IMG/VR virus record: IMGVR_UViG_3300046787_000604 | Span: 1,752-65,751 of that record | Direction: 5' to 3' (one strand) | Length of the DNA stretch: 64,000 nucleotides | Origin: a virus | Taxonomy: Duplodnaviria > Caudoviricetes | Shown here: one piece after another, positions 1 to 26,400 of the stretch | Position numbering within the stretch: the stretch's first letter is position 1 | Layout: each line of letters opens with the position of its first letter | Made by a program: the position numbers and the translations under genes | The notes under the pieces: generated by a model | Seen by the model: the letters and a program-made list of their open reading frames with translations, nothing else | Databases searched by the model: none | What the model was told of the DNA's origin: nothing

Positions 1-2998
1 CACCCTGTATAAATTGAAAGGTTGCCAATACATTTTCAGCATTTAATGTTTTCCAAAAACTAGGACCGGTTGTCCCTGTAGAACCCGGAACGGAATACTG
101 TGATTGTCCATTAACAATTGTTTTAGTAATAGTAATCGCAGTTAATACTTGATAATATTCAATATCAGATGGATAAATATAGTTTTGACAAGCAATACCG
201 TAAGTTACCGCAGAATATTCCGCAGTCCCTCCGGTATTTGTTAAATCAATACAATCAAGATTTGTGATACCCGTGGTTAACGGAAATTCAGGACTAATAA
301 TTCCTAAAGGATTACTAATTGTCGGTGTTTGGCCTGTAAATGATATAGTTACTTTTGAACCCGGACAAGTTCGATACGTTACGGTTCCCGGTTCGGTTAT
401 ATCAATAACTACACTTCTCACACACTCAGAAGGATATGCGGGTATATCATATAGAGTAGACCCTGAAGTAGTTTGGGTAAGAGCGTAACGAACATCTGCA
501 GTAAATGATGTTGACTTAAGAACACCATTAATACCATTAACTTTATAACCCCCTGATACAGTGGTCGCTGAATATAAATAATTTTTATCTTTAGTTTTCT
601 TTGGGTCAACGAACGTTAATAACGTACCCGGCTCCAAATCAAGACTAGATAACACAGTTAATGTATTATCAAAGTGACTCTTAGTACCATTTGTGGGCAA
701 TGAAAAAGTAACTTTAATTTTATTTACATTATCAAAGTATTTTTTTCGAGTATTATAAATATTAACTCTTTCCCCCGGAGGAAGTGTAAATCCGTCAGCA
801 AGTGAGTTACTTTGATTTGGATATGTATAAACATTTGACGTATTAATTTTAAATTTTGTTGGACTTTTTGGTCTACCTAAATTACCTGCAACTGCTTGAG
901 CCTGCATAGCAGCCTCCATTTCAAAATATGTATCATAGTCCGGATTATCCTGACCAATTCCAGGCCACACACGATTCGGTATTGATGTATCAGAAATTTG
1001 ATTATTTTCATAATATAAACCGGAATTAGATAACTGAGATAATACTCCAGGTGCTGGTGATGATTCATCGGTCTCATCATCTCCACCCGGTTGAGTACTT
1101 TCAGGTACACACTCACAAGACTGACAATCAGGATAAGTAATCATCGGTAATTTAATTCTTCCAAATTTATAACTAACAATTTTATCAAACTTAAGAAGTA
1201 AGAATATCCCTCCCGCAGTATACAATAAAGCCTGTGCCAAAAATCCTGCAATCATACCCGCCGTCGCACCAAAAGCTGCGGTACCGGCAATTGCCCCTCC
1301 AAATAACGACCAATAATTAACGGCATTTATACTAAAATTTAATATGAAATAAGCAATAATTAAAACCGCAAAATTATTCCATATAAACGCTAAAAAATGA
1401 TAAATTATTAAAACCGGTAAACCAATTAATTGAATAACCTGTAAAAGTATTGAGAAAATAAAAAAGAATAAATCAAAATTCCTAAATCCTTCATTTACCG
1501 GAAACTTATTAATTGTGGACGCACACTCATTATTATCAATTTCCTTAATACCTATAAACCTACCTTTAGCCCCATTTTTAAATTCATCAATAAAACCTGA
1601 AACCGTATAAACTTTGTTAAACTCAAACTGATAAAAAGTGTCTTCACAATTTATTTTTTGATTTAATATATTGTTTTTTAATTCAATACTGTTAGCAGTT
1701 ACCCCATAAAAACCTTCGGTATATCCTGACCAATCAAGACCAAAATAATAGGAACTTTTTTGTCTCATTTTATTTTGAGCACTGGCATTTGGATTAGTAG
1801 GGTCACTGTTATTCGTAGACCACCCATATTCTTTAACATTAGGGACTAAGAAATACGCACGTCTTGTTTGTTCCGATAAACTAGGAGATTGTGACCACTT
1901 AACTTTAAATCTATATTTCCCTTTAGTTGGAATACCTACCGAGGGGTCATTTGAAATTACTTTTTCACCAAATTCATTAGTTATAAAATAATCTAGATTC
2001 ATTGGTAATTCCGTTAACCAAACTCCGTTACCATCAATAATGTTACCCGACTTCTCCAATTGGAATCTCTCAAGTATTGGGTTACCGTCCGCATCATAAT
2101 TAATCGTTTGTCGTATTGCCAAAATAGACCCAGGACCCGCAGCTAATTCACATAAGTTACCCATGTCATCTTTTGGTTTAGCATTTCTCCTAAGTCTTTG
2201 AGAATCCGCAGTTGAATAAATAGACCCCATGAATACTGAGGTTGGTTGTATGTCAATATTGGCGTCATCTCTAAGGTCAAAGTCAACACGATTAACAGCA
2301 ATTTGGCAAATGTCAGGGTCACCCCACAATGGAGCAACAGATAAAGTTCTTGTTAAACTAACAATTTGAGGTAATGACGATAAATCATTTGAGGTTTTAA
2401 ATCGGTTACCAGCAACTTGACCTTCCGTTGCCAACCCCATTCTAATTAAGTCTTGAGGTGTTAAAGAAAACTCACCAATATCCGATAAGTCAACATCCAT
2501 TACTAAAGTTTGTGACCCTAATGGTACACCCATTATCATATAGTCACCACTTTCGTTTGTTTTGGTTGTATATTTGTAGTATTTGTCGTAAATCTCAACA
2601 ACAACATCATCAATTAAAGCGTCATCTCTCGTAGGTAAAGTACCTGTAGCAGCGTGTGCCGAGTATGACTTTTCATAAGGTAAAAGATTATACCTAAACC
2701 CATCTTCATTTTTATCAGTCGGAGACTTGTAAGGGTAGATGCTAGATATTAATGGATTAGATTCATCGACGGATGAGATTGGGATAAATACTGATACTCG
2801 AGCGTTCGGAATACCAAATCCGTTATTTGCGGTAACTCTTCCAACAACAACACCATATTCTGAACAGCTTCTACTATAAACGTCAGTTTGTTGTATTTTT
2901 AACGATAAGATTTCTAAGAACTCAAAATCTTGGTCTAACTGAACATTAATTGTTTTGTTAATACCTAATTCGGTTCTAATTCTATATGACTGACCCAT
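1..2998 (-). CDS. Large putative virion/baseplate-associated protein, runs off the left edge; contains an internal hydrophobic segment
   Basis: Not in the ORF track because no stop lies in the window. Manual translation from ATG 2998 gives MGQSYRIRTELGINKTINVQLDQDFEFLEILSLKIQQTDVYSRSCSEYGVVVGRVTANNGFGIPNARVSVFIP. The same frame was checked open at ~1200-1500 and ~260-490. It follows the baseplate wedge gene and has a TATTTATA motif upstream. Confidence 0.8.
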   Translation of the reverse strand, partial: MGQSYRIRTELGINKTINVQLDQDFEFLEILSLKIQQTDVYSRSCSEYGVVVGRVTANNGFGIPNARVSVFIPISSVDESNPLISSIYPYKSPTDKNEDGFRYNLLPYEKSYSAHAATGTLPTRDDALIDDVVVEIYDKYYKYTTKTNESGDYMIMGVPLGSQTLVMDVDLSDIGEFSLTPQDLIRMGLATEGQVAGNRFKTSNDLSSLPQIVSLTRTLSVAPLWGDPDICQIAVNRVDFDLRDDANIDIQPTSVFMGSIYSTADSQRLRRNAKPKDDMGNLCELAAGPGSILAIRQTINYDADGNPILERFQLEKSGNIIDGNGVWLTELPMNLDYFITNEFGEKVISNDPSVGIPTKGKYRFKVKWSQSPSLSEQTRRAYFLVPNVKEYGWSTNNSDPTNPNASAQNKMRQKSSYYFGLDWSGYTEGFYGVTANSIELKNNILNQKINCEDTFYQFEFNKVYTVSGFIDEFKNGAKGRFIGIKEIDNNECASTINKFPVNEGFRNFDLFFFIFSILLQVIQLIGLPVLIIYHFLAFIWNNFAVLIIAYFILNFSINAVNYWSLFGGAIAGTAAFGATAGMIAGFLAQALLYTAGGIFLLLKFDKIVSYKFGRIKLPMITYPDCQSCECVPESTQPGGDDETDESSPAPGVLSQLSNSGLYYENNQISDTSIPNRVWPGIGQDNPDYDTYFEMEAAMQAQAVAGNLGRPKSPTKFKINTSNVYTYPNQSNSLADGFTLPPGERVNIYNTRKKYFDNVNKIKVTFSLPTNGTKSHFDNTLTVLSSLDLEPGTLLTFVDPKKTKDKNYLYSATTVSGGYKVNGINGVLKSTSFTADVRYALTQTTSGSTLYDIPAYPSECVRSVVIDITEPGTVTYRTCPGSKVTISFTGQTPTISNPLGIISPEFPLTTGITNLDCIDLTNTGGTAEYSAVTYGIACQNYIYPSDIEYYQVLTAITITKTIVNGQSQYSVPGSTGTTGPSFWKTLNAENVLATFQFIQG

Positions 2999-5502: not shown

Positions 5503-7929
5503 TTATGAACCACATCCAAAACATTCAAATTCTGAATCTGTTGGTTTTGTTGTAGGGTCAACAAGATTTACTTTTGGTTTCTCTTGTTTAACCGTTGGTT
5601 GATTTACTTTCGAAATGTCCACAGCTAAGTGTTTAGCCCCTGTTGATATCGCCTTAGTTCTAACATAATAACAAAGAGTTTTCAACCCTTTACCCCATGA
5701 ATGGAAGTGTGATGATGAAATTTTTGATAATGTTGGTTCTGACATATAGATATTCATCGATTGTGATTGGTCAATAAATGGAGCTCTGTCGGCTGCCATA
5801 TCAATTAATTCTCTTTGAGAAATTTCCCAAATTGTTTTATATTTTGGAATTAAATGTTCAATTCGTTTAACTTTCTTGTTGTAGTTTTTATCTTCAACAT
5901 CAAGGTATTGATTGAAATTAATGTTTTGAATAGACCCTTCATTCATAATGATTTCATTTTTCAAATCTTCACTCCAAACACCTAATTTTTCAAAATCATT
6001 AATTAAGTACTTGTTCACGATAAGAATTTCACCTCCAACAACACGTCTGTTAAATAACGCCGAGTGAGCTGGTTCAGTCATTTCAAATGAACCTGTAATC
6101 TTAGCCGAAGATGCCACCGGCATTTGAGCAGTGAATAATGAGTTACAAACACCATACTCAGCGACTTTATCTTTCAATCCAATCCAATCCCAACGACCTG
6201 ATAAATTATCTTCATTCATTCCCCACATATCAAATTGGAAAACTCCTTGAGACATTGGTGACCCTTTGAAAAATTTATATGGTTGATATAAACCTTGTTG
6301 ACATAAGTATGAACTCTCTGTAATCGCAGCAAAATAGATAGTTTCAAAAATATCTTTATTCAATTTTTTCGCCTCTTCTGATGTGAAAATAAAGTCCATC
6401 AAATAGAAAACATCTGCAAGTCCTTGAGTTCCAATAGCAATAGCTCTTTGTTCAAGACCTCCTTTTCTACCTTGTTCAGTAGAATAACTATTAATATCAA
6501 CAACCTTATTAAGAGCTCTTACCACTTTTCTAACTTCATTATAAAGTAAATTAAAATCAAACTCACCTTTAAGAATAAAGTTTTTCAATACCATAGAAGA
6601 TAATGTACATATCGCAGTCGTATCCTCATCTGTGTATTGGTAAATTTCATTACATAAGTTAGATTGTTTAATCACACCTATATTTTGGTGATTAGTTTTT
6701 CTATTAGCACTATCTTTAGAACATAAATAAGGAACCCCTGTTTCAACCTGTGACTCGATAATTTTATTCCAAATAGTTTGAGCTTTCACTTTCTTACCAA
6801 GACCCAACTCAACAGCTTTATTATAAGTTTCCTCATACTCATCACCATAAGTTTCTTGTAATGGTTTAAGACCCGCCTTTAAAATATCGTTAGGACAAAA
6901 CAAATACCAATCTGAATTGTCTTTAACCGCATTCATGAAATTATCCGGTAACCAAATTGAAGTGAATAAATCCCTTGCTCTCAACTCTTCAGCACCTGTA
7001 TTCTTTTTCAAGTCCAATAAATCAAAGATGTCTTTGTGCCATGGTTCGATGTAAATAGCTGCACTACCTGGTCTTCTTCCTTGTTGATTAAAGAATCTCA
7101 ACCCTTCATTAACAATCTTTAGGTATTTCAATAATCCACCTGCAAACCCACCTGATGAGTTAATACGACTCTCTTTACTACGAACGTTAGACATACATAA
7201 TCCAATACCCGCAGCATCAGATGAATATGTCGAAATGTCGTTGAATGTTTGTAATAACCCTTCTCTTGAATCCCCGTGATTGTATTTCAACACACAAGAC
7301 GCTAATTGAGGTGTTTTAGTTCCCGCATTAATCATAATTGGTGTTGCCGGTGAAATAAGTTGGTTTGATAATGAATTATAGTATTCTACCGCCTCTTCAA
7401 ATGATTTTGTCACCCAAAGAGCAACTCTCATATACATATGCTGAGGTCTTTCAACCACTTTACCTTCCGGAGTTTTCAATAAATACATTTCTTGTAATGA
7501 ACGCCAAGCAAAATAATCAAAATTGTAATCATTTTCGTGATTAATTACAGAATCAATATTTTCCTCACCATATTCTTTAATTGTTGCAATCAAATCAGTG
7601 TGAATAACACCTAATTCGTACAAATTTAAAATAGTATTAGAAAAACTTGCATCAGTTTCTTTATGGTAAGATGAGATAGCAACTGAAGATGCTAATCTTG
7701 AGTAGTCATGATGACTACCAGTGTAAGACGCTGCAATTTCATAAACCAATTTATCTAATTCTTTTGTAGTGATAAACCCTTCGGTCGGAACTGAAGTTAT
7801 TACCTTAATAAAAATTTCATCCGAGTTTACATTTAACCCTTTAGCCGCACGTTTAACTCTATTGTAAATTTTTTGAGGGTTGAATGAAACTTCATCTCCC
7901 CCTCTTTTTTTAATCTTTAATGACATCAT
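5503..7929 (-). CDS. nrdA: Ribonucleotide reductase class Ia alpha subunit with N-terminal ATP cone
   Basis: ATP cone (IKKRGG...FNPQKI), SPATP, LASC, SNLCNEI, AQMPVASS, and C-terminal CFGCGS redox pair. Confidence 0.97.
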   Translation of the reverse strand: MMSLKIKKRGGDEVSFNPQKIYNRVKRAAKGLNVNSDEIFIKVITSVPTEGFITTKELDKLVYEIAASYTGSHHDYSRLASSVAISSYHKETDASFSNTILNLYELGVIHTDLIATIKEYGEENIDSVINHENDYNFDYFAWRSLQEMYLLKTPEGKVVERPQHMYMRVALWVTKSFEEAVEYYNSLSNQLISPATPIMINAGTKTPQLASCVLKYNHGDSREGLLQTFNDISTYSSDAAGIGLCMSNVRSKESRINSSGGFAGGLLKYLKIVNEGLRFFNQQGRRPGSAAIYIEPWHKDIFDLLDLKKNTGAEELRARDLFTSIWLPDNFMNAVKDNSDWYLFCPNDILKAGLKPLQETYGDEYEETYNKAVELGLGKKVKAQTIWNKIIESQVETGVPYLCSKDSANRKTNHQNIGVIKQSNLCNEIYQYTDEDTTAICTLSSMVLKNFILKGEFDFNLLYNEVRKVVRALNKVVDINSYSTEQGRKGGLEQRAIAIGTQGLADVFYLMDFIFTSEEAKKLNKDIFETIYFAAITESSYLCQQGLYQPYKFFKGSPMSQGVFQFDMWGMNEDNLSGRWDWIGLKDKVAEYGVCNSLFTAQMPVASSAKITGSFEMTEPAHSALFNRRVVGGEILIVNKYLINDFEKLGVWSEDLKNEIIMNEGSIQNINFNQYLDVEDKNYNKKVKRIEHLIPKYKTIWEISQRELIDMAADRAPFIDQSQSMNIYMSEPTLSKISSSHFHSWGKGLKTLCYYVRTKAISTGAKHLAVDISKVNQPTVKQEKPKVNLVDPTTKPTDSEFECFGCGS

Positions 7930-7939
7930 ATGTTTTTAA

Positions 7940-8890
7940 TTAGAAATCTTCCGTGAATGTTAATGACTCACCTAATTTAGCCTTTTGGTATTCCATAGTT
8001 CTTGATTCAAAGAAGTTACCCTTTGTCTCAACAGCAATTTGTTCCATAAATTTAAATGGTTGGTCAACATTAAATTGTTTTTTACATCCAAACTTAACCA
8101 ATAACCCATCAGTTACAAATTCCAAATATTGTTTCATCAAATTAGAATTCATACCGATTAAAGATACAGGTAAAGATTCTGTAATAAACTCTTTTTCAAT
8201 CTCTAATGCAGATAATAGAATTTCTCTAATTCTTTTTTCACTTGGTTTATTCTCTAAGTGGTTGTTAACTAAGTGGATTGCAAAATCACAATGTAAGTTT
8301 TCATCTTTAAAGATTAAAGAATTTGCATTACATAAACCTTGCATAATACCTCTTGATTTTAACCAAAAGATTGAACAGAAAGACCCTGAGAAGAAAATCC
8401 CCTCAACCGCAGCAAAAGCGACTAATCTTTCTTGGAAAGATGAATTCTCAATCCAATCAAGAGCCCATTTAGCCTTCTTTTGAACCGCTGGTAATCTATC
8501 AATAGCGTGGAAACATTCATCTTTTTCCACTTCATCAGAAACATACGTGTCAATCAATAATGAATACATTAATGAATGAATATTTTCCATCATAACTTGG
8601 AATCCGTAGAAGAATTTCGCCTCAGCATATTGAACTTCTTTTAAGAAATTCTCAGCCAAGTTTTCATTTACAATACCATCAGACGCTGCAAAAAACGCTA
8701 ATATGTTTTTAAGGAAATACTTCTCATTATCTGATAAATTTTCCCAATCTCTAATATCGTTTGATAAATCAACTTCTTCAGCAGTCCAAAACGCTGCTTG
8801 GTGTTGTTTATAAAATTCCCATATATCATTATGTTCAATAGGGAAAATGACAAATCTGTCATTATTTGGTTCTAATATTTTTTCGTTCAT
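7940..8890 (-). CDS. nrdB: Ribonucleotide reductase class Ia beta subunit
   Basis: [41 protein letters not shown] and DENLH di-iron motifs. Confidence 0.97.
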
Positions 8891-8898
8891 GTTTTTAA

Positions 8899-10284
8899 TT
8901 AAATTTGTTGTTGACCTTGTTGTTCTCTTTGTTTTCTTTTCTCTAATAGTTCTTTAACTCTATCTCTTTTTCTATCTTCTTGTTGTTCTTCGAACCCTAA
9001 GAATGTTACTGAGCTTTCTGTGTCGATTTCAAGTAATTCATTATTGAATTTACAATTCTCAAACACAACTCCATCTTGACCTAAACGACTTTTAGTAATC
9101 GCAATGGTTGCAAGACCCATTTCTTTTTGTTGTAGTGTTTTTGCCACGGAAATAATTACGTGACCTACTTGAGCCTTTTTAATTGACCCACCCATTTGGT
9201 CTGTAGTTACAACCTCAGCTGAGATTGAAGACCTATTACCTTGTGTTGCTGTCCAACCAACTAAATCAAGTTCGTGACACATAGCCTCAAAACCTCTCAT
9301 TACAGACCCTTCGGCTTTCCACTCATCTTTACTACTTGATTCCGGTAATACACAATCAATATAATCCAATAAAACCATATCAATCTTAATACCATCCGCA
9401 ATCATTTTTCTAACCTGATTTTTAATTTGACTCATAGTCATCGTATCTGACGCTAATTTTTTCAAAACCAATCTGTTTTGCATTGTTTCCTTAATCTCAG
9501 TAATTTTACCCATCACCTCTTCTTTGTTAAGAACTAAGTTATCCGGTTCAATTCCTGTCCACATCGTAAAGTGTTTTCTTTGAATAATCTTTGGGTTATC
9601 CTCAAAAAATATTTGAAGAACGTTGTACCCAAGATTAAATGCTGAATTGGCTATCTTAGATAAAATAGTTGTCTTACCAACCCCTGTTGGCGCCAATATA
9701 ACACCAATCTCACCTTTAGCCAACCCACCTTTAAGTAGTTTGTCAATACCTTTAATCCCCATTGGAATTGGATGACGATAATCTTCATCAAGTACCGTAT
9801 CCAAATTGGCAAAGATATCAGTTTGACCTTTATCTATTTCTCCAACCTGTAATGCGTCTCTCACAAGTCCTTCTACCTTATCATAAGATTCGAAATCCCC
9901 TTGAGTAATTATCTTTTGAGCTTTGTCCATAGCCTTTTGAAGTTCTTGTTGTTTACAGAACTTCAAGGCTTTCTCCTGAACGAAAGTGGTTCCTTCAAAT
10001 GGAGCCTCTTTAACTTGAGTTAATGTGTCCAAAACAATCTTGGCAACCATCTCTTGGGAGATTTCAGACTTAACTATCTGCTCAAGAGTATCGAAATTAG
10101 GTGTAGATTCATATTTCTTGTGATACTCTTTTGTCATTTGTAAAATGATTTTAAAGTACTTGTTGTCGAAATAGATTGGCTCAATAACATCCATAATTGA
10201 AGATGAAAAGTCCTTATCTAATATAATCTGATTCAGTAATTGTAATTGAAATGTGTTCCCTAAATAATCGAAATTTTTGTTCAT
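8899..10284 (-). CDS. dnaB: Replicative helicase, DnaB / T4 gp41-like
   Basis: Walker [10 protein letters not shown], Walker B LLDYID, TATQGNR motif and KSRLG arginine finger. Confidence 0.93.
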
Positions 10285-10321: not shown

Positions 10322-10774
10322 TTACTTACTCAAGTCAAGTTCCAAATAATTGTAACTTAATTTTTTATCTGAAAAAATGTCAGTTAACCCTCGAAGAGTT
10401 TCCTTCAAGAAAGGTCTTACATCGACAGTATAACGAACTTTTGGTGGATAAAATTTTCCGTCAAAAATTCTATGACAAATTGTCTGTTCACCTAATTTGA
10501 TGATAATGTTAAACACTTCCGGTCCATCAGTGAACGATGTGTCCATAATACTTGGGTCGTGAATGATAGAATCTTTATTATCCATCATATAGACCAAAGT
10601 CTTCATTTTCAAGTATTCTTGAAGTTCTTCTTTGAACTCACCTACGAATTCATATAGTTCAACAGAACTTTTTGCTTTTGGGTTAAACCCTCTTACGTTA
10701 AAGAATCTTTGGACTACGATGTTATCGTTTAATGTCAATAAAAATTCCATCTTAGTGCTTTCTTGCTCTCTCAT
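10322..10774 (-). CDS. Hypothetical protein in the replication block
   Basis: 150-aa ORF tightly packed and co-oriented between the Tad1-like gene and the helicase; no recognised motif. Confidence 0.7.
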   Translation of the reverse strand: MREQESTKMEFLLTLNDNIVVQRFFNVRGFNPKAKSSVELYEFVGEFKEELQEYLKMKTLVYMMDNKDSIIHDPSIMDTSFTDGPEVFNIIIKLGEQTICHRIFDGKFYPPKVRYTVDVRPFLKETLRGLTDIFSDKKLSYNYLELDLSK

Positions 10775-10798
10775 AAATTTAAGTTTGTTTGTGTTTAA

Positions 10799-11113
10799 TT
10801 ATACGATTTGTTTACCTTCAACATTTCTTTTTATTCTGTCTGAAGTTCTTTTATTTAACCATAAAAGCGCCTCATCTAATTTCGTAATTGCGATTGCGTT
10901 TTCACGACATGGGAATTTACTTTGTAAGTAATTCATACGGTCTAACAACATCTCAATTAATTCTTCGTTTGTTGTCCCGTCGGCAATTGTTTTTAATTCA
11001 GTTGAACCCTCATTTACCGGTTCTTTTTGAATGAACTGTAATGTTTGTCCTTGTTCATCTTTGTTTTCAAAATTTGACAACTCATACTTGTGTCCTTCTA
11101 CTAATACTTTCAT
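10799..11113 (-). CDS. tad1: Tad1-like anti-defence sponge protein (Thoeris/CBASS signal sequestration)
   Basis: GTTNEELIEMLLDRMNYLQSKFPCRENAIAITKLDEALLWLNKRTSDRIKRNVEG closely follows the Tad1 C-terminal consensus as recalled (NEDL...RL..FQ..F.CRENA.AITKLEEALLWL.KR...R..RGVEG). Confidence 0.85.
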   Translation of the reverse strand: MKVLVEGHKYELSNFENKDEQGQTLQFIQKEPVNEGSTELKTIADGTTNEELIEMLLDRMNYLQSKFPCRENAIAITKLDEALLWLNKRTSDRIKRNVEGKQIV

Positions 11114-11115
11114 TT

Positions 11116-12117
11116 TTAATTTTTGTTTGTGTTACGTTTTTCTTTTCTTGTTAATTTCATAAATGGTCTTAGGAAGTTTACCCAAGCCTCATCATTTTTT
11201 GGAAGATATTTGAAGAGTCCGTCCTCCATCATCATCCTCATTAAGTTTTTGTATCCCCTATCGGTAGGGTCAATCGTGTCAGTGATAATTTGTTCAACTA
11301 ATTCTTTTCCATCGTCAGTTATTAAAGGGTTAGATAAATCAACTATTTTTTTGTTTGTAGTATAAAACTCCTCACCAAGTATACCATTTTTACTTTTACC
11401 GGTCAAAATATTCTCCAAAACTTTTGATTTTTTTACTTGCGTGAGATTCCCAGCACTAACACGTATTTCGTCAATAGTGCATGGTTTAACCTGCATTGAA
11501 GGGAATAATTTAACCAAAGTTTTTTCACCTAAACCTTCAATACCATTAATATTGTCAGAATTATCCCCTGTAAGAATTTTACAAGTTAAGACATTATAAT
11601 GCGGTATTTGAACTTTATTGATGGTAATCATATCACCCTGTTTAAAGTATTGTTTTGAGTTTGGTGAGTAAACGGACACATTGTCCGAGATAAGTTGTGT
11701 AAGGTCCTTATCTGATGAAAATATGATGATTTCTTCATCAATCGCCTTTTGACAATAATAAGCAATAAGGTCATCCGCCTCATTATAAACCATCTCAACT
11801 TGTCTAATAAAGACTTCTTCAAGATATTCTTTAATACGAGCATTTTGTTCAAGATATGATTCAAGTTTATACTCGTTCATATCGTTCTTCCTATTTCCTT
11901 TATATTGTGGATATAATTCTTTCCGAGCCGCAGAACTATTTTCAGCATCCCAAAAAACAACAACCTTATCGTGGTTATGTTCCTCAAGGAATTTTCTAAT
12001 GGTATTGATAAAGTGGTAAATAGCCCCTAAGTGACTTCCGTCACTATAGAGGTCTTTTACTCCGTGGAATCCAATCTTCATTAAGTTGGACCCGTCTACT
12101 AATAATGTTTTAATCAC
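11116..12117 (-). CDS. 5'-3' exonuclease / flap endonuclease (T4 RNase H / Pol I N-terminal-like)
   Basis: LLVDGSN, YKGNR, EADDLIA, SSDKDLTQL and GDNSDNINGIEGLGEKT (H3TH) motifs. Confidence 0.93.
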   Translation of the reverse strand: MIKTLLVDGSNLMKIGFHGVKDLYSDGSHLGAIYHFINTIRKFLEEHNHDKVVVFWDAENSSAARKELYPQYKGNRKNDMNEYKLESYLEQNARIKEYLEEVFIRQVEMVYNEADDLIAYYCQKAIDEEIIIFSSDKDLTQLISDNVSVYSPNSKQYFKQGDMITINKVQIPHYNVLTCKILTGDNSDNINGIEGLGEKTLVKLFPSMQVKPCTIDEIRVSAGNLTQVKKSKVLENILTGKSKNGILGEEFYTTNKKIVDLSNPLITDDGKELVEQIITDTIDPTDRGYKNLMRMMMEDGLFKYLPKNDEAWVNFLRPFMKLTRKEKRNTNKN

Positions 12118-12144: not shown

Positions 12145-13146
12145 TTAAGCTTCTTTTTCTTCTGTTAAGTCAAAGTCCCCATCAGTTCCGATGATGTCTT
12201 TCCAATAATCAGCATATTCCTTTTTGTATTTTTCCAATGAAGCCTTTTCTTCAGTTGAATCTTTACCACCGATGAATCCGTGAGGTGTAACAATAATCTT
12301 TCCGTCATCATAACCTAATCCGTTGATGTGGTTTTTCATAACTGAAACTTTTGTTCTTGAAGCAAATTTAATTGTTCTCTTGTCTTTTGTTGCAGTAATT
12401 TTAGTTGTTCCAGCACCTTTTTGGTTTCCAAATAAATAAACTAATGAAGAGTTCAACCAAATTGCCTCACCACCTTTAGCTTTAATCTTCGGTTGTCCAA
12501 AAGGATTATCCGGTAATTCAACCCATGGTTGATTAACAATGATTAAAGTGTTTTCATATTTTGAATCCGCTTTACGAGACCCTGAAATTCTTTGGTTAAT
12601 ACCCATACCAATTTTATCCGCTAACGTGGATGCATTGTGTTGTTTACCACCTTTACCTTCATAAGTCATCTTACAAGGAACTGAACCAACAGAATCCCAC
12701 ATAAAACATAAACTATAGTCCAAGTTCCCTTTTTCTTGTTCGTCTAACAAATTATTAATATAATCTGTAATCTGTTCAATGTAGTCAAAATTGTTATTGA
12801 AGATGTAAAAACCATCCCATTCCAATTCTCCTGTTTCTTCATCAACAACTTCCTCACAATCAAATCCCATCAACTTGGCGTGTTCAAAAGACCATTTCTG
12901 CTCCGTGATGATAAACACCGGAAGAATTCCCTTTTTCTGAGCATCTACCGCAGTTTTCACAAGAGCAGTTGTTTTACCCGTATCCGAGTGACCCAAGAAC
13001 ATATTCAAATGTCCAATCGCCGGTCCCGGTAATCCCACAGCATCCAAGAAGTCCGGACCTAAGTCAAAAAATCTTTGTGGTTTGTATTTTGCGGATGTTG
13101 AGAATTTATCTTTAATTGATTTGAAATCGTTTTTCTTAATCGCCAT
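12145..13146 (-). CDS. uvsX: RecA/UvsX-like recombinase
   Basis: Walker A GHSDTGKTT, WDSVGS, IIVNQ, KGGEAI and KNHI; lies between the SSB and exonuclease genes. Confidence 0.88.
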   Translation of the reverse strand: MAIKKNDFKSIKDKFSTSAKYKPQRFFDLGPDFLDAVGLPGPAIGHLNMFLGHSDTGKTTALVKTAVDAQKKGILPVFIITEQKWSFEHAKLMGFDCEEVVDEETGELEWDGFYIFNNNFDYIEQITDYINNLLDEQEKGNLDYSLCFMWDSVGSVPCKMTYEGKGGKQHNASTLADKIGMGINQRISGSRKADSKYENTLIIVNQPWVELPDNPFGQPKIKAKGGEAIWLNSSLVYLFGNQKGAGTTKITATKDKRTIKFASRTKVSVMKNHINGLGYDDGKIIVTPHGFIGGKDSTEEKASLEKYKKEYADYWKDIIGTDGDFDLTEEKEA

Positions 13147-13496: not shown

Positions 13497-14351
13497 TTAG
13501 AAAGGTAAATCCTCGTCCGGAATGTCATTCGCTTGAGGGTCAACCGGTGCAGAAGATTGAGATTTTCCACCACCAAATGATTCTGTATTTACTGAATCAC
13601 TTTCGTAAAGATATCCACCTTTTTCTGAATCCCATCTTGGAGTTTCCCCACGAGCAATCGCTTCAAGATATTCAACCGGTTTTTTAGAGTAAACGTCTAA
13701 CCAAGTTAATTCGTCAGTAATCCACTCATTAGCCTGAGCCGGGTCAGTATGTACCGGACCTTGGTCTTCATACATAATTGTAGATACAGTTGTGTATTCT
13801 TTTCCTTTTGGAGTTTTCGCCTTAGTCAATTCAATGATTAAGTCTCTACCGATTTGAGCGTCAGTAACATCTCCTTTGTTTCTCCAAATTGGGATGATTT
13901 TATCTAAGATACCATCATTTTTGTAGTTGTGTTTGAATCTCCAAAATTTTGGTCCGTCTTCTTCTCTGTCTCGGTCAATTACTTTTACAATGTAAAATTT
14001 ACGAGAACGGTATTGAGCCGCCAATTGTTTGTCTGATTCTTTTCCGGTTGAGATTAACTCCTCGTAAACCTCATTCAAAGGTGAACGTTCGTTATCATTT
14101 TTTCCCGGGTCATAGAATTTTTGCCATTGTCCACCAACTTGAATCTCATGATACCAAGCCTCTTTGAATGGCGATGAACCGTCACCCGTAGGTAAGATTC
14201 TAACTCTTCTTTGTCCAGATTGCTCCTTATCACCTAAGATAAGTGCAAAATATTTTTTCATTCTTTCGTCTTGCGACATTTTTCCTTGGGCCCCGCCCCC
14301 TGATTGTTTTGAATTTTCGTACTGTGCCAATACGGCGTCTAATGAACTCAT
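13497..14351 (-). CDS. ssb: Single-stranded DNA-binding protein (T4 gp32-like)
   Basis: RVRILP...PF...WYH, FYIVKVIDR...GPKFWRF, GRDLII and an acidic C-terminal tail ending DEDLPF. Confidence 0.85.
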   Translation of the reverse strand: MSSLDAVLAQYENSKQSGGGAQGKMSQDERMKKYFALILGDKEQSGQRRVRILPTGDGSSPFKEAWYHEIQVGGQWQKFYDPGKNDNERSPLNEVYEELISTGKESDKQLAAQYRSRKFYIVKVIDRDREEDGPKFWRFKHNYKNDGILDKIIPIWRNKGDVTDAQIGRDLIIELTKAKTPKGKEYTTVSTIMYEDQGPVHTDPAQANEWITDELTWLDVYSKKPVEYLEAIARGETPRWDSEKGGYLYESDSVNTESFGGGKSQSSAPVDPQANDIPDEDLPF

Positions 14352-14415: not shown

Positions 14416-14445
14416 ATAAAAAAAGGTGTCCGTTAAGACACCTTT
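14416..14445 (-). terminator. Rho-independent terminator
   Basis: Minus strand AAAGGTGTC-TTAACG-GACACCTTT followed by TTTTATTT. Confidence 0.8.
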
Positions 14446-15422: not shown

Positions 15423-18400
15423 TTATAAAGTGAAATTAGGTGATGTCGCAGTACCCCTCGTAGATTCTGATGTGTACCCAACTTGCAATTGGAACACCCC
15501 TAAATTACTAACTTCGATAACGTTTGTATATTTCGTACCTGAATTATTTGTTATTGTAATATTTTGTTTAGCAGACCCAGGCGTAGAATACACTTCAGGA
15601 CTTGACTTAGAAATTAGTTTCTCACAAGTAAATTGATATGTAATATATCCTCCCGCCGGTTTCTTAATATTATAATAGTCAACACCATTAAAATTCGGTA
15701 ATTCACCGCTTGAGGTTTCAGAAACTTTGGTTAGTGTACCCGGTGGTGTTTTTATTTCCGCTGCCGACACAGGGTCCCCCGCCTTTTTATCAGTTAAATA
15801 CACGTTAAACTTATAACTTAAAATAACATCCTTAGGATTCGCAACTCTATCAACAGGTCTAGCATATAAACTAATTGTGAAATAACCCCTAACATTATCC
15901 TCATCATAATCCTTTAACGTAAATTCATTAATCATTTGAGACTCTGTTATTGAGAACACTTGTTGGTCAGGTGAAACAAACCCTACAATTCTATCTCCCT
16001 TCCCACTTGAAAATACATCCTCAACGTACTTGTTATTTGGACCAGGTTCAATATTAACAAGTATAAAGTCTACATCCGGTTGAGGGTCTATTTTCCAAGC
16101 CCCCGCCTCAGGATTAACTTTAACGGTTAATAAAGTAGTACTTCCATTTGGACCCTTAACGTTTTCTGTTTCAATAAGAGTAATAGGTCCTGTTGTTTGT
16201 GGATTAGTATTCGCATTATTCGCAGGAACCGCATTTGTTGTTTGGTTTTCCGGATTTTGGAAACCACCCGGAGATGACGCTTCAGACGCCACTATTGACG
16301 GGTCAAATGTGTATTTACCTGAACTTGTTGCAGAACCATAATTAGTCGTAACAACAATATCACCTTTAGACACTACTTTACCAGTACCTATTTCAGGAGT
16401 AACAAATCTTAAGGTTGAATCATCAAATACCGTAACACCCGAAGGTAGAACCGTAACCCCATTAACCACAACTGAAGATAAACCATTCAAATTATATCCA
16501 TTAACTTGAACAATAGTTCCTGTATTTCCGGATAGTGGTGAGAATGAACTAATTACAGGTGGAGGACAAGTTTGACCTGGTAATGGTGTCGCCCCAACAG
16601 GTGTTGGTGTCGCATTAGGACTTGATTTACCATTTTTCTTACTCTCAGTAATTGTATTTTTCAAATCATCAACAATAGCTTTAGTTGCAACCCCAACCGT
16701 TAACGCCGATTTCAACGATGCGTCAACAGTCAAACCTAATTGTTTATATTCGTCAAGATGTGTATCAAAATATGTTGATAGTTTATTATCTTTTGGCCAA
16801 TAACAAACATAATATTTTAATAAACCAATTTCTGAAATTTGACCAATTCTTTGAATTAATCTATCTCTCATGAAAATAATATAACTTTCAAGACTTGCAA
16901 AATTCGCAAATGGTAATGATTCCGTTGTTGATGGGTTTGATGTCACATTTACACAAGAATACTTAGGTAAGAACGCAATACTTGATTCACCCCAATCCAT
17001 ATCTAATGTTATCGCGGCTAAGTTATTATCCCACCCATCAAATTTACCTGACTTATTATTATTGTATTTTTGGAATGATGAAATATATGATAAACTATAA
17101 ATAATCGTCTGTAATATTGGAAGATTAGGTATAAGTCTTTTAAGTTCATTCGCAAATGTTTTTTCAGTAATGTTTGATTGTGTCGCCCCTGTCGCAACAA
17201 ATCCGTAATTACTTGCGTATGATGGTAATAATTTTGCACTACACGTATTTGTTGCAGCCTTTGTCGTATCCGATTTTTGTGGAATTTTATTTGATTTAGT
17301 CGCATCAGTGGTTGCACCTAACACATTAACAGTATCTTTCTTAATCTTAAGTAACGCCTCAACTTTAGTTAATAAGTTTTGGTTAATACTTTGAATGAAA
17401 GTGTCAATTGCCGGTAAATCGTAAATCCCTTGTCTAATTCCCGTTATTGTTGTTTGGAATTGACCCGGAGTAATTGCATGGTCAACTTGTTGTATCAAAT
17501 AAGGACCGTTAAACATCGGTACGTGTCTCAAGTTAAAATACATCGTTGGTTGTAATAACGCATTCCCTAATGAAACAACCTGACAGGTATAACTTCTTTG
17601 TTTATACAAATTGTATAACCCAACATTTTGAGTTGAGGTATTTTTACCTGTTGACTGGTCAACCATATTAACCATGGTGTTAATAGATTCAGAAGTCGCC
17701 TTTCCATTATCTTGAGAAACATTGAATGAATGGAATACCCCTTGATTTCTTGTCCCAATATCAACATTGAATCCAACACATTTGTTAGAGACAGCCCAAT
17801 CTTTTTTACCTGATTGATTTTCAATTAATGGGTTTTCAGAAGCACGTCTCATTTCAAATGAATCATCACGGAAACGAGAACTAACTTTAGGTAATGCCAA
17901 ATATTGTGATGGTTTTCCCACATAGAAACAAACCATTTTAGAACTAGACTTTCTATAATCAACATCTAAAAACGTACCCCATAAACTATTTGCCATTGCC
18001 AAAGACCCTTCTGTCCTATTTGGTATTGTAGTACCATCAACATCTTGAACATTATAGAAATTAACATATGCCGGTAAATTCATTACCGTGAAGTTATTTT
18101 TAATTAAAATTCCACTAACAAACGTAAAAACACTCATCGCCTGATTTAACGAATTAGTACTAAACATATTCTTCAAATCAAAAATGTCTAATAAGATAGT
18201 ATCACCAATATTTCTTGACGCTCTATCTAAAAACAACATATCTTCAAATAATGTCTTACTTTTGTAATCACCACCAGCAATCCATTTATCATTAAGTGCC
18301 TTAAATACCTCATAATTTTCAACTTTACTCTGTTGTCCATCAATAGCACTTTGTATCGTTTTTTCAGGTAATTGTTGTTGGTTCGGAAGAGCCTTTCTCA

Positions 18401-21400
18401 CCCCCGATAAAACAAGATTCAAAAAGTTATCTTGTAAGACACTTTCATTTGTCAAATATTGAACGATTTGATTTTGGAATTGAGCAACCGTATTATTTGG
18501 ATTTCTAAGCAACTGAGTAGCATACATTTTAATAATCGGCGCCAATAACACAACATTATTCACACTAAATTCAATATTATTATCAATAAAGAAATCTGTA
18601 ATATATGAACCATTACTACTATATTCAACATTACGAATTGTTGAAAATCCTACCTCCGTTTCAAGAGCAATCCAAGCGTTTGGATTTAATAATTTAGATT
18701 GACCAAGAGTTAACGAACTATCTTTACTTGGCAACGTATTTTGCACATACGGTAAAAACTTAATTGGGTCTGTAACTCTCGGTGTATTGTTGTGAGATAA
18801 ATACGAATCAAAAACTCTCCTTTGATAATTTGAAGGGTTTCCATACCTAAATAAGATATCGTAATTCATAAATGATGTAATACCATTTTGAAATACCTCA
18901 TATTGATTTCCAATAGCGTTGTTAAAATATTCAATGTTAGTTTCCTTACTCTTTTGAGCCGGTATCGTCATTAAACTCTTAAATAATGATTGGAAGTTTC
19001 TATACACCGCCTCACCATTAACCGTAGATTCATTAATTCCAACAGGATTTGTTCCCGAGTCAATATCAGTAATTGGTTTACAAAAATTCAAAAACTCTTG
19101 TTCAAATGAATCTAATATCTTTTTCTCAAATACCGAGAATACTTCCTCAATTTTACTGTACTTATCAACATTTGACAAATACATTGGTGATTGAGTTTCT
19201 CCACTATTGATGAAATTCAAATAAGAATCCGGTTGTGGATATTTGATTTGGTCAGCATCAAAATAACCATAGTTAGGTGCCGACCATAATGTTCTAACAG
19301 AACCGTTATAGACTGCGTTATTTGAACTAACATTAACTTTAGTTGTTTGTATTGTTGAGAAGTTATCCAAACAAGCATTATTAATTTGATTCACACTATT
19401 ACCAAAAGACGGAACGATAAAATAATCAACCCCTTTAGTATTATTTGTAGGGTTACAATTAATATCACTTCCATAATCAACATCTTGTAATAAAACAGAA
19501 TATGTTTGTAAAGTTAAATCTTTTGTGTCTTGTTTTGCACCAGTAATATTTGAATCTTGGAAATTGTGTATTTTCATCCCACCATTAATACTTTGTTGAA
19601 TCTCGTCACTCGTATACCCACTATACAATTCATACCCATTATAAAACACATTAAAATCGTTAACCACTTTTGGGTAAAACCCAATTTGCATATTAACACT
19701 TGTTGTTGTTTCATTTTGAAGAGTTATTGATAATGGAACACTGTCAAACTTAACATCATAAGTTTGAGTAATTGAACTTAAAATTGGACTATAGTTAGTC
19801 GTATAATTAAAGTTTTTCCAAGCACTTGATAAAATATCTACATTTGACTCTTTATACTTTTTGTATCTATACCATACCGAACCATACTTTAACACCCATG
19901 CGTAAGGTATTTTATGAATTGCACCAAATTTCTTAAAACAAGACGCAATATAATCTAATTCCTCTACAAAAGTATCATTCTTAGTTTTATATCTCTCCCT
20001 TAATGACGCTAGTGGTAATGAATTCAAAAATAAATAAGCGGATTGAACATATGGATATGGGTCACTTGTTCTCGTATTTTGAACACCATTTTGAATAGAA
20101 TTAACAAAATAAGGAGTATTCAATATTGAGGTTGTTGTTCTAAACGGTAATTCCCCTGTTGGTGTGATATATTCACAATAACCCTCAGTTGCAGTAAAAT
20201 TACTTGGTAACCTTGTCGTATAAAATGCCCCTAACCCAAACACACCTGTTGAATTTTTCAACACATTAGTCGGATTTGAATTATCCAAATATGAGAAATT
20301 AGTCACCGGTCTATTTGTTGTATAATCATATACATCATTAAAATTCGCAATGATTTTTCTATTTTCAAAAACTTTTAGAGTTTTCTTAGTATCATAGACA
20401 TTAAACCCAATAGATTTATTACTTGAACTTAAATTATTTAATGACCACGACGAATCAGTAAATGGGAGAGTATCCACAACTAAGGGCTCATTTGAAGCAT
20501 TTTTGATTAATTGTAATAAGGCATCTGATTTTGTACTTACTTGAGGTATTTTACCAATATCTAAGATATTCATAATACTATAAGAATTTTCTGTTAAATT
20601 CTTAATATAAGGAGTTACAAAGAAATCTCTAATATAATCTTGATAAGCTCTACCAGTTCCTGAATTAGAAATTGTTTTTAAGAAATTTGGATAACTATTT
20701 GCAGTTATATCGTAATTTTTAAGTTTCAAACTTAAATAAGGAGAACTAACATTAATACTTTGTACAATATTGTTAACTTCAGTCTCACTATTTAATTTTA
20801 TTAACGAATCAATTTGATTTTGATTAGCTCGATTTAATCCTGAATAATGTGAAGTAAGAAATTGTCTTTCCCATATTTCATAAAAGAATTTAATCTCCTC
20901 TTTATTAGTATATGCAGCACCTGTCGAAGGGAATTCAATCGCATTAATATTGATAACATTTGTATATTTGTCGCTATCTAATGGTGGAGGCGATGATGGT
21001 TGGTTAAATTTTCTAGTTAACCCTTTCATATATTCCTCAACAAATTCAACTTCAGGCCATTTAGCATAATTCCACCCTTGAGTTAAATCAACTACGGTTG
21101 GGTCTGCAATATATTTTAATTCAAACCTACCTTTTTTATCATCAGGAGATTCAACAAAAAATTGTGGCCATGGATAAACAGGTTCTTTTGAATTACTTAG
21201 TCCTGTGTTGGATTGTTGAGCACTATTGGAAATAACAACATCTTGTCTTGACTCAGTACTAGGTGCCGATGATGGATTATCTAATATCGCGTTTTTTCTT
21301 ACGGGGTCATATTTCACATCCCAAGCATTTGTATGAACGTCATCTAATAAACGAAGGAACGCTTCCGCAGATGCCATAACAACCGCAATCATATTTCTAA

Positions 21401-23102: not shown

Positions 23103-23415
23103 AATAATAAAAATGATTTTCTAATGCCGCTTTATAGTCTTGTATAGATGGTAGTAGCGGAAATGGAATAATCAACACAGCACCATCATATATGTTATTT
23201 TCTAACCCTCCAAATTCAGGATTAGCTTGGAGTATTAACCAACTGAAATATGGTGAGTTATAATACTCTTGAGATACCATATCCAATCTACTTCTAGCGA
23301 CTTTATATATGTAAGCCTTATCTGTCGTTTTTTGAGGTAATGACACATAAGGTACTACGGTTTGTTCACCGTTAATTAAAAATTCACTATATCTGTTCCA
23401 ATATTGAAATGCCAT
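23092..23415 (-). CDS. LysM-like baseplate wedge protein (T4 gp53 / tail X-like)
   Basis: RLDMVSQEYYNSPYFSWLILQANP...GAVLIIP pattern. Confidence 0.8.
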   Translation of the reverse strand: MAFQYWNRYSEFLINGEQTVVPYVSLPQKTTDKAYIYKVARSRLDMVSQEYYNSPYFSWLILQANPEFGGLENNIYDGAVLIIPFPLLPSIQDYKAALENHFYYYGR

Positions 23416-26400
23416 TAATTAAGTTTTACTTTTGAAATAAGTGCCGTTGAAGATACCCCATCCGGTGAATTCCATTTATTATTATCGTTGTTTGCGTTTG
23501 TTGATGCCCCCAAACCAATTATCATATTTTTTTGAGATTTTTTATTATTCTCACTCACATTACCCTGTGTTGTGAATGTAAATTCTCTTGTTTTTTTATC
23601 AAATGGAGTGTAAATAATAAAATCTTTTAATTTGGTTTTTTCCATATTATCTATGAAAGATTTTGTAATATTATTCTCACTCTCAAATAAAGGTTTTGCA
23701 ACTCCAATCCAATACTCATCAAATCGTTTTTCTACTTCATCCGAACCATTACCGATTAGACCTTTATTGTTAATAATATTACCAATCATCAAAGTCTTAA
23801 ATGTTTGATATTTTTTGTCATCAACAATATCATCAGAAATTATCATATAAACTCGTCTGAAAATATTATCACTAAATTCAGGTTTCATTGTAAATGGAAC
23901 AAAAACATTTTCAGGTGTTGTATAGTTCGACTTACCCTTAGTATCAACTTGCATTAGAAACACACCTTTATACTCTTTACTATCACCCGGATAAACAAAG
24001 GCATTTTCCGAAAATACTACTTCATTAAACCCTTTAATACCTAAATGAATTTTATGTATATCATCCACAAGTTCATTAAGAGTATTTGTCGCCCCACTTG
24101 AGGTTATATTTACGTTACTGGTACCACTTGTATTATATATTGTAACAGGACCTGTCTTAGTTTGATACCCATCAGTACCATTATTATCACTTAATCCAGC
24201 AAAAATAAGTAAATTAGCTCGACCCAATGTTTGAATATAAGTCTGTTCCATGTTAACTACGTCTTGTGTTATTTTAGTAACCGCATTTTGGAATGTACCT
24301 CTTTTATTTTTAACTAAATTACCATAATTATCCTTAACTTGTCTAATTACTTTATTTGAAAACGCAAATACCGGTGAAGACATCCATTTAACAAACCCTT
24401 CATTACCACTAACAATATCCTCTCCAAGTGTTTTGAAAATAGTATTGAATCTATTTTCAACATTGTTTGGTTTACCAAACAATTCAGTCACATTACTAGT
24501 TGTTGCAATATCCCCTTGAGTATATAAACGCTCTAACATCCATTGTTGACGAACCGCATTATTATATTGGTTAGAAGTCTCTTTTGTTTTATTAATTATT
24601 GTTTGGAAATATGTTTGAGTTTCTTGAACTACTTTAACCATAAAATCAGAATAATTAATTGTACCTGAATCACCCTCAGTTGTTGCACTATTTGAAGTAA
24701 CAACCCCAATCGGACTATTATTATTTTGCCCACTATTTGGTACCGCTTGATTAAGTGTTGGTACTGATGGTGGTGGGGCCATTTTCAAAAATTCTTGGTC
24801 TAATGTTTTCGCATAATTCTCTTGAGAGGTAACATCCGCTCTATCATCCCAAATTTCAGTATTCGCATAATAATTAAATGTTAATGAATTTTGTAATTTA
24901 TCAATAGATTGTTTTAATCCGCTACCACCAACAAACTTAAATCCTAATGTTACATTTGCAATCATTGGTTGAATACCTATACCTTCAGGATTAATGTCTA
25001 ACATCTCATAAGTTATGTTCAAACTATCCGGAATGATTTTGGTATTATAGAAATCCCCAACTCGTAACACTAACACCGGTGGTGCACCAAACGCAGTATT
25101 AGTCGCATTATCAAACTGTAACGTCTGTGAACCTCCAACATCTTTAACTGTAGGGATTGTATCACCAGGTCTCATACATTGTTGTAAAAACGTTAAACGA
25201 GAGTTTAACCCTTCGGGTGTTGTTGAATGAAATGCCGGTTGGAAAAACTTCAACTTATCTTTAAGGTTATCAAAAACCATTGGTGTTTCCGCTTTGATTG
25301 TTTCAAAATAATCACATTCCGACAACAACGCTCTTAACACACGTTTAGTTATATTATCTTTTGGTTTGTATTCTTGGGTGACAACATCTTCTTTAACCGT
25401 TTTAATTACTTTATTTCCTTCAAGAATTGTTTGTGTCTCAGGGACGGTATTATCAACAGGAGCATTTAGATTTGAGTTAATTTTTGAAATATATGCTCTT
25501 CTACACGCCATCGCTTGATACGTAAAAATATCTTTAGAACCCGATTGAGTATCCCCGCCATCAACATTTTGGTCTTTATCAGTACAGGTAACTGATTTAC
25601 CCGGAGTTAAGGTATACGGAGTACTTGTTGTTGTTGCAACTAATGGAGATGATGTTGCAACCTCACCTAAAGCACCCGCACCGGTTGTTGTATCTTCAAC
25701 TACGGTTAATCGTTTATCACTAACATATTTTGCAGTGTTTGGATTTTCCGCAAAAAACCGAATTGTTGACGCGATTCTTCGTTTAGATAATTCAAGATTG
25801 TACCCTACCGTTGCCGGAGCGGAACAACTAGAACTAATATTAATGGTAATCGTACCAGTATTTTGCCCTAATTGTTTTGCCAAGTCAGCAGCCAACTCAT
25901 TCATCACATTATAGTTTGGTGTAACTACTGTATCAAAAAAATTACTTGTAGCCCCTGAGTTTGGTTTTGACTTATAATAGTTCTTATTTGATTCACTTGT
26001 ATAACGATTATACTCGGTAGTATAATTTATTGTTGTATTTGGTTTTGGATAATCATTCCCAAAGTAAAAACCTGTTTGAACATATTTCTCAAAATAATCT
26101 GTCGGAGTCGCCTGAGCAACTTGAGGTACTGTTTGAACCGTTTTTTTAATAAACTCAATTTGTTCTTTACTAACATCTTTAGATGTAATGGCCTCTTGTA
26201 ATTGATATAAATCGTTTGGATTAACCGTATAATATTTTTTAGCTAATTCATATAAATCATATTTTCTACATCCGGCAAAGAATGATTCTAAAATACTATC
26301 AACTCTAGCTTTATTTGTTTCATTATTAAGAACTTTATTAACAACCACATTCAATGATGATGGATGGTCAACAACCACTTTCCAACTCAATGAACCAGTA

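Follow-up and report, generated by a model that had tools for sequence, protein, structure and literature searches.

A short-form Tad1-family gene carried as an optional cassette among the replication genes of a probable large, low-GC myovirus

A stretch of phage DNA of 64,000 nucleotides (the window) carries, in the midst of its replication genes, a small open reading frame (ORF) that a first-pass annotation had described as a Tad1-like sponge with a shortened N-terminus, embedded in the replication operon 2 nt past the exonuclease stop. The locus raises the question of whether this ORF encodes a true Tad1 protein and what its place among the replication genes means. The features of the locus are listed in Table 1. 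All the strings that the annotation had quoted were located in the 104-aa translation: GHKYEL at residues 7-12, LQFIQKEP at 25-32, CRENAIAITKLDEALLWLNKR at 69-89, and RNVEG at 96-100. The junction sequence also agrees with the annotation, as the exonuclease TAA (11118-11116, minus strand) is followed by 2 bases and then by the Tad1 ATG (11113-11111). The protein starts at about residue 16 of CbTad1 and is without residues 1-23 of SBSphiJ7 Tad1. Since the stop-to-stop frame of the ORF is just 110 aa, there is no space for a longer N-terminus and the shortness is not a start-codon artefact. On the evidence of the sequence, it was confirmed that the ORF is genuine and that its resemblance to Tad1 is far above chance.

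Table 1. Features of the replication block and of the exonuclease/orf150 junction in the window
Feature	Position	Strand	Basis or remark
Terminator-like hairpin with T run	14422..14445	-	Upstream of the SSB gene
gp32-like single-strand DNA-binding protein (SSB) gene	13497..14351	-	First gene of the block; PF08804 E 1e-8; phrog_1192
UvsX/RecA-like recombinase gene	12145..13146	-	phrog_97 E 4.9e-15; Pfam RecA E 3.2e-4, under the cut-off
5'-3' exonuclease (FEN-type) gene	11116..12117	-	PF02739 E 5.5e-34; phrog_107
Left copy of the exact 12-mer AACACAAACAAA	11122..11133	-	In the last exonuclease codons, with its end 8 nt ahead of the Tad1 start codon
Tad1-family sponge gene, short form (putative)	10799..11113	-	104 aa; Pfam, solved chains, AF2, Foldseek/VIA-align, hhalign
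Right copy of the 12-mer	10784..10795	-	In the 24-nt spacer before the orf150 ATG
orf150	10322..10774	-	Conserved; right-hand neighbour of the insertion site, upstream of the helicase gene
DnaB-like replicative helicase gene	8899..10284	-	DnaB_C E 7.1e-12; phrog_19 E 2.4e-61
Ribonucleotide reductase (RNR) genes, beta 7940-8890 and alpha 5503-7929	5503..8890	-	End of the same-strand block; Pfam Ribonuc_red_lgC E 8e-163; beta matches annotated phage RNR beta genes

The family of the ORF product was assigned by several sequence comparisons. The sole Pfam family found was PF24729, the Acb2/Tad1 hairpin, which matched residues 51-88 with an E of 1.3e-6 and 29 bits against a cut-off of 27; this is a margin of 2 bits, with a model that spans the hairpin only. 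In PHROGs, the match was to phrog_2428 (function unknown) with an E of 8.4e-25. Nine solved chains were matched at E<=10 when the 104-aa ORF was used as the query, and the six best were Tad1 chains (E 2e-13 to 7.5e-12), among them CmTad1 (8kbb, E 2e-13) and CbTad1 (7uav, E 6.2e-12). A profile of the short-form clade (A1, 111 rows) was also aligned by hhalign with a profile of 40 SBSphiJ7-type Tad1 proteins (A4), one of which is named Thoeris anti-defense 1. This gave a probability of 99.7% and an E of 9.8e-27 over 104 columns, corresponding to residues 1-104. SBSphiJ7 Tad1 itself matches the ORF at 62% identity over residues 44-100. In the 'phages' collection, 34 records match at least 80% of the protein, with no cultured phage above about 45% identity.

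The predicted fold points to the same family. The AF2 model computed on A1 has a pLDDT of 96.7 and a pTM of 0.83, with strands at residues 2-5, 9-12, 23-27, 29-32, and 40-44 and helices at residues 49-66 and 70-95. This corresponds to the Tad1 fold, which is an N-terminal antiparallel beta-sheet followed by two long antiparallel helices (Li et al., 10.1101/2023.11.15.567273). Foldseek found 20 PDB matches at E<=0.001, of which all 14 shown were CbTad1 or CmTad1 chains with a TMq of 0.63-0.70, and the next match after the 20 had an E of 1.1. The top 8 entries in VIA-align were likewise all Tad1 (Z 9.8-8.4, rmsd 2.2-3.1 A, 91-98 aligned residues). In these alignments, residues 1..104 of the model pair with residues 16..124 of CbTad1, and the identity to CbTad1 and CmTad1 is 31-34%. 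The annotation had suggested a structural alignment to Tad1 as a check, and the model matches CbTad1 and CmTad1 over its whole length. In a library of viral protein models, the best matches were Acb2/Tad1 hairpin proteins. No short-form structure was present among the solved chains found by the sequence and Foldseek searches. Judged by its sequence and predicted fold, the ORF product is an unexceptional representative of Tad1, a family already known.

The annotation had singled out the short N-terminus. In a search of 1.84 billion cluster representatives, 2363 matched with E<=0.001. Among the best 150 of these, 126 have an alignment that begins no later than query residue 10, and the N-terminal overhang is at most 5 residues in 110 of the 126. 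By this measure (110 of the best 150), the short N-terminus is not new but is the norm of a large known clade. The length is also well kept, as 104 of the closest 120 database clusters are exactly 104 aa. In a quick tree, 15 SBSphiJ7-type rows fall on one side of a branch with an SH-aLRT of 99 and the window protein and the other short forms on the opposite side, with loop-insertion forms scattered among the short forms. F27 is present in 98/98 short-form rows and, in the hhalign comparison, pairs with the invariant F of the 'FQ.G' strand in long Tad1.

Compared with SBSphiJ7 Tad1 (142 aa), the founding Thoeris anti-defence 1 sponge (10.1101/2022.05.03.490397), the window protein shares the C-terminal hairpin motif but is without an internal stretch of about 22 residues in addition to the missing N-terminal residues (hhalign). 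It is 6 residues longer than the SBSphiJ7-type proteins before helix 1, where AF2 places a fifth strand (extra residues T38-I43). Compared with CbTad1 and CmTad1 (7UAV/7UAW/8SMD and 8KBB-8KBH), the predicted fold matches throughout. Since the protein begins at about CbTad1 residue 16, the arm that bears Q8 and L13 of CbTad1 is missing.

Close relatives of the short form are already present in the literature. Leavitt et al. (10.1101/2022.05.03.490397) described four major clades and horizontal transfer of Tad1, and they state that all ten tested Tad1 homologues inhibited Thoeris, with one from an Opitutaceae sp. named. The homologue of Opitutaceae sp. TAV5 in Table S1 of PMC12393519 is a 104-aa short form, and its tie to the protein tested in 2022 rests on the common organism name. 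By eye, this prophage protein has about 62/104 positions (about 60%) identical to the window protein, at the same length. Its layout as tabulated is also the same, with a GH.Y strand, a QF..K strand, a DGTTNEE loop, a PCRENAIAIT helix, and an RNVEG tail; its host lineage is different and its flanks are unrelated. The list of Tad1 homologues in Table S1 also holds an IMG/VR protein that is, by eye, 5 positions off the window protein. In Table S2 of the same source, two proteins of similar size are given as validated: #62 (101 aa), whose layout is similar to that of the window protein by eye, against type I Thoeris and Yersinia CBASS, and #46 (105 aa) against type I Thoeris and E. albertii CBASS. 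Another short form, #51 (98 aa), is without the PCREN motif and is listed as inhibiting 0/7 systems. Since near-identical proteins are already catalogued as Tad1 homologues, the window protein adds little to what Tad1 is.

The ligand sites were mapped by carrying the solved-chain HMMER alignments onto the residues named by Li et al. (10.1101/2023.11.15.567273). In that account, CbTad1 and CmTad1 are hexamers with six sites for gcADPR or cyclic dinucleotides (CDN) and two sites for cyclic trinucleotides (CTN). The trinucleotide site, which contains R90/T97 in CbTad1 and R88/T95 in CmTad1, corresponds to R70/T77 in the window protein. The gcADPR/dinucleotide pocket of CbTad1 includes F82, N92, R109, and R113 together with a C-terminal lid. 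Of these, N92, R109, and R113 align with N72, R89, and R93, the lid with the RNVEGK tail, and F82 with L63, next to Y62. The CmTad1 interface residues R88, T95, K96, Q98, E99, M102, W103, and K106 align with R70, T77, K78, D80, E81, L84, W85, and K88, of which 6/8 are identical. In the short-form rows of A1 (n=98), R89 is kept in 96, R93 in 92, N72 in 78, L63 in 89, R70 in 41, and T77 in 42. With the query excluded, R70 and T77 are both kept in 29/97 rows versus 72/97 for N72, R89, and R93, which means that sites are gained and lost within the short clade. By its sequence, the window protein is among the minority that keep both site signatures. The annotation's term 'Tad1-like sponge' thus draws support from the sequence, the predicted fold, and the conserved site residues. 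Li et al. (10.1101/2023.11.15.567273) give substitutions in 6% of their Tad1 set at the CTN site and 12% at the gcADPR/CDN site; their set and the short clade (29/97 for the CTN pair) were built differently, and a proper count is needed for a comparison.

Very probably, then, the locus holds a short-form Tad1 sponge that is carried as an accessory cassette among the replication genes of a large low-GC myovirus. Binding is expected here from the conserved residues and from the activity of relatives. After infection, the Tad1 gene would be transcribed along with the replication genes, and its product may assemble as a hexamer, a trimer of dimers, as the conserved interface residues suggest. Signals of the gcADPR type, and perhaps cyclic dinucleotides, would be held in the dimer-interface pocket by N72, R89, R93, and the RNVEG lid, and cyclic trinucleotides at the three-fold interface by R70/T77. 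Such sequestration of the signal would block activation of the effector. Counting against this explanation are the Leu (L63) at the F82 position, the absence of the Q8/L13 arm, the loop that is 6 residues longer, the inactivity of the short form #51 and of 19/84 tested sponges, and the narrow margin of the Pfam score.

Another possible explanation, although rather an unlikely one, is that the protein has the Tad1 fold with a shifted or narrowed specificity, binding some other ADPR-derived or cyclic-nucleotide signal of the host or using one site only. In CbTad1, Q8 and L13 touch the guanine of 2',3'-cGAMP (10.1101/2023.11.15.567273), and it is this arm that the window protein has lost. The missing arm, the Leu in place of F82, and the longer lid loop before helix 1 mean that the walls of the pocket differ. 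The annotation had proposed that the divergent N-terminal half may alter the ligand range; the lost arm would suit this, but the short form is usual in a known clade with members reported as active. Cyclic-dinucleotide spectra are described as varying among Tad1 homologues in the same work (10.1101/2023.11.15.567273), and the uneven retention of the two sites among the short forms (29/97 versus 72/97) could also reflect such shifts. Moreover, 19/84 of the tested sponges were inactive in the sense that none of the seven systems was hit (PMC12393519). Against this, the window protein retains both site signatures as well as W85. Short-form homologues that share this Leu, and whose N-terminus is about as short, are also reported as active against type I Thoeris; the Leu is present, by eye, in the Opitutaceae sp. 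TAV5 homologue. We therefore favor the short-form sponge with the usual Tad1 ligands.

The surroundings of the gene were considered next to its sequence. On the minus strand, the order is terminator-like hairpin, SSB, orf98, recombinase, exonuclease, Tad1, orf150, helicase, RNR beta, and RNR alpha, with inter-gene gaps of at most 64 nt. The hairpin upstream of the SSB gene is the probable upstream boundary of the transcription unit. No terminator-like site was found on the minus strand in the intergenic gaps from the SSB gene to the RNR genes, and the one other such site in this span (8406-8386) lies inside the RNR beta coding sequence. Promoter-like sites of the sigma-70 type were not above shuffles (33 vs 28.4 +/- 5.7). 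Contigs from RNA libraries bridge the junctions: a 760-nt contig covers 10714-11477 at about 93% identity, a 501-nt contig 10983-11482, and a 193-nt contig 10977-11168 with one mismatch, DNA carry-over being possible in each case. Each RNA-library run accounts for a share of the stretch of at most 0.17, and the uncovered parts mean nothing. These contigs agree with read-through transcription and show neither a single transcript nor timing. Most likely, transcription of the replication genes runs through the Tad1 gene as well, and the gene may be expressed early alongside the replisome, as the annotation proposed. Two short RNA-library contigs (X1 record 2 and X6 record 9) stop within the right repeat copy, at window positions 10782-10786, and their loose ends do not run on into the Tad1 gene; these may derive from Tad1-less relatives in the same samples.

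SBSphiJ7 tad1 also lies in a recombination and replication neighbourhood, with a RecA/UvsX-like gene on one side and, on the other, a 421-aa gene whose counterpart in SPG24 carries the annotation SSB. A position in a replication block is therefore not unusual for the family, and both the short N-terminus and the replication-operon position are ordinary for Tad1.

What is not constant is the presence of the gene. Eighty viral loci matched by a Tad1 profile were compared, and the order exonuclease, Tad1, orf150, helicase was found in 14/80. In 64/66 of the remaining loci, none of the 44 window proteins apart from the Tad1 ORF has a match (tblastn E<=1e-3), and the Tad1 identity is 55-82%. In 14 of these non-syntenic loci that were sampled, the neighbours include a DNA ligase, a UvrD helicase, a GIY-YIG endonuclease, homing endonucleases, several DNA methyltransferases, and many small ORFs without an assignment. 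A second set consisted of 80 loci with an orf150 that is 77-99% identical. The exonuclease and orf150 are present with no Tad1 gene anywhere in the locus in 71/80 of these, including all 18 in which orf150 is 96-99% identical. The exonuclease, Tad1, and orf150 are found together in 4/80, Tad1 and orf150 at a contig end in 1/80, and the other 4/80 are too short upstream to be judged. A search of the whole records of five Tad1-less relatives with the clade profile gave no match, the complete 317-kb genome included, the sole positive control for this search being the window's own hit with the Pfam model. The Tad1 gene is thus an optional accessory cassette at the exonuclease/orf150 junction, which is the new point of the present analysis. 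The claim that it is embedded in the replication operon holds as far as its position is concerned, but the gene is an optional insert that 71/80 related loci do without.

These comparisons bear on a further alternative, which is that the protein serves the phage as an accessory factor in replication or structure and has no anti-defence role. The tight same-strand block of SSB, recombinase, exonuclease, Tad1 ORF, orf150, helicase, and RNR would suit such a role, and several homologues in Bacillus phages are labelled 'putative structural protein'. Yet the sister phages with the 96-99% identical orf150 have the exonuclease directly beside orf150, and a relative whose record is 100% complete is also without the gene. 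The gene is, moreover, carried at 55-82% identity by phages that share no other window protein in its flanks, where its neighbours include methyltransferases, ligase, and homing endonucleases. An accessory role of this kind is therefore very improbable.

The least probable alternative, scarcely credible on this evidence, is an Acb2-type (anti-CBASS 2) sponge, since the hairpin domain common to both families (PF24729) accounts for the sole Pfam match and for the alignment of T4 Vs.4 (7uq2), but that alignment is limited to the hairpin (48..103, 55 residues, Z 6.4, rmsd 4.3 A), unrelated helical hairpins reach a similar Z in VIA-align, and no chain named Acb2 was among the nine solved-chain matches at E<=10. 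Acb2, too, is described as a hexameric sponge for cyclic oligonucleotides. The protomer of Acb2 and Vs.4 is small and all-helical. Residues 1-47 of the window protein, unlike Acb2 and T4 Vs.4, form a predicted sheet that aligns with that of Tad1. The sequence matches, together with a predicted fold of sheet plus hairpin, therefore identify the product as Tad1 and not Acb2.

Returning to the optional cassette, the junction itself shows how the occupied and empty sites differ. The 12-mer AACACAAACAAA was spotted by reading the junctions and was confirmed by a DNA search, which found two exact copies in the 64-kb window, one at each border of the Tad1 insert. An alignment of the two copies extends over about 20 nt. 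Empty sites in relatives have a single copy, followed by a stop codon and the orf150 ATG. The Tad1 insert thus lies between two copies of a stretch from the exonuclease 3' end, of which the right one looks like the duplicated remnant. A similar flank pattern is seen in more distant Tad1-bearing relatives (L006-L015 and L031). With one mismatch allowed, there are 4 copies, which is not above shuffles (mean 2.2), so the case for the repeat depends on the number of exact copies, which is just two, and on their positions. A repeat scan of 10700-11250 reported no direct or inverted repeat, and no attC-like hairpin was found next to the Tad1 gene. The duplication may have arisen at insertion or may serve for excision.

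The junction also receives other cargo. In the 71 Tad1-less loci, the exonuclease match and orf150 are separated by 6-9 nt in 58 cases, by 29-33 nt in 4, and by 772-798 nt in 9. The relatives with the long gap include L125, L126, L128, L134, L148, and L156. Four of the nine were inspected (L125, L128, L148, and L156) and have an ORF of 265-267 aa in the gap of about 770-800 nt. Those of L128 and L156 match the 2OG-Fe(II) oxygenase family PF13640 (E 5e-18 and 2.5e-18). The insert joins the exonuclease gene a few codons ahead of its stop. The exonuclease/orf150 junction thus looks like a hot spot for accessory cargo. Elsewhere in the block, the recombinase of the Tad1-bearing loci L006-L014 is only 58% identical and is separated from the exonuclease gene by about 1 kb, and their best helicase match begins about 1.7 kb after orf150. 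This suggests that the replication block of these loci may hold further insertions, possibly mobile elements or inteins.

The sister phages provide a natural comparison of a locus with and without the gene, since their neighbouring genes are 96-99% identical, the site is empty or occupied, and the 12-nt repeat marks both borders. Such a pair shows how a sponge gene enters, or disappears from, a conserved replication operon, which makes this polymorphism at a defined junction a modest yet clean addition. Within the short clade, the residues of the CTN site are kept far less often than those of the gcADPR pocket, a difference that could help in selecting homologues for binding studies. It is conceivable, though unlikely, that the short clade is a distinct functional subtype, with the dimer pocket retuned to signals unassigned to Tad1 and its patchiness set by a balance between escape and sponge sensing. 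The retuning could then stem from the lost N-terminal arm, the replacement of the pocket Phe by Leu, and the lengthened lid loop with its predicted strand. The patchy cassette in near-identical jumbo phages would then reflect escape from signalling defences versus hosts that sense sponges (Panoptes-type).

Few clues were obtained for the neighbour of the insertion site, orf150. It has 3615 homologues, and 114/120 among those listed are exactly 150 aa, none with a Pfam domain. No Pfam or PHROG family passed for orf150 and the Atlas gave nothing, and its AF2 model (pLDDT 48.5) is unusable. From its place directly upstream of the DnaB-like helicase gene, a role as helicase loader is only a guess. 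Two giant ORFs lie between the replication block and the tail genes, at 15423-23102 (2559 aa) and 23415-28439 (1674 aa), both on the minus strand, and neither matched a Pfam or PHROG family at the thresholds used.

The window encodes a tail sheath, a tail tube, a baseplate, and a DNA polymerase, which places the Tad1 gene in a phage. The source virus record is 65,751 bases long and 22% complete by CheckV, and the record of the relative that CheckV gives as 100% complete is 317,259 bases long. From the size of this complete relative, the phage is probably about 300 kb, and it is probably a large low-GC myovirus. No tRNA gene was found within the 64-kb window. The window has a GC content of 34%, and a Shine-Dalgarno-like motif precedes only 3/44 ORFs within 20 nt of the start, the leaders being A/T-rich. 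These two features fit a host of the Bacteroidota type, and the similarity of window DNA to genes of Tenacibaculum and Flavobacterium phages lends this weak support.
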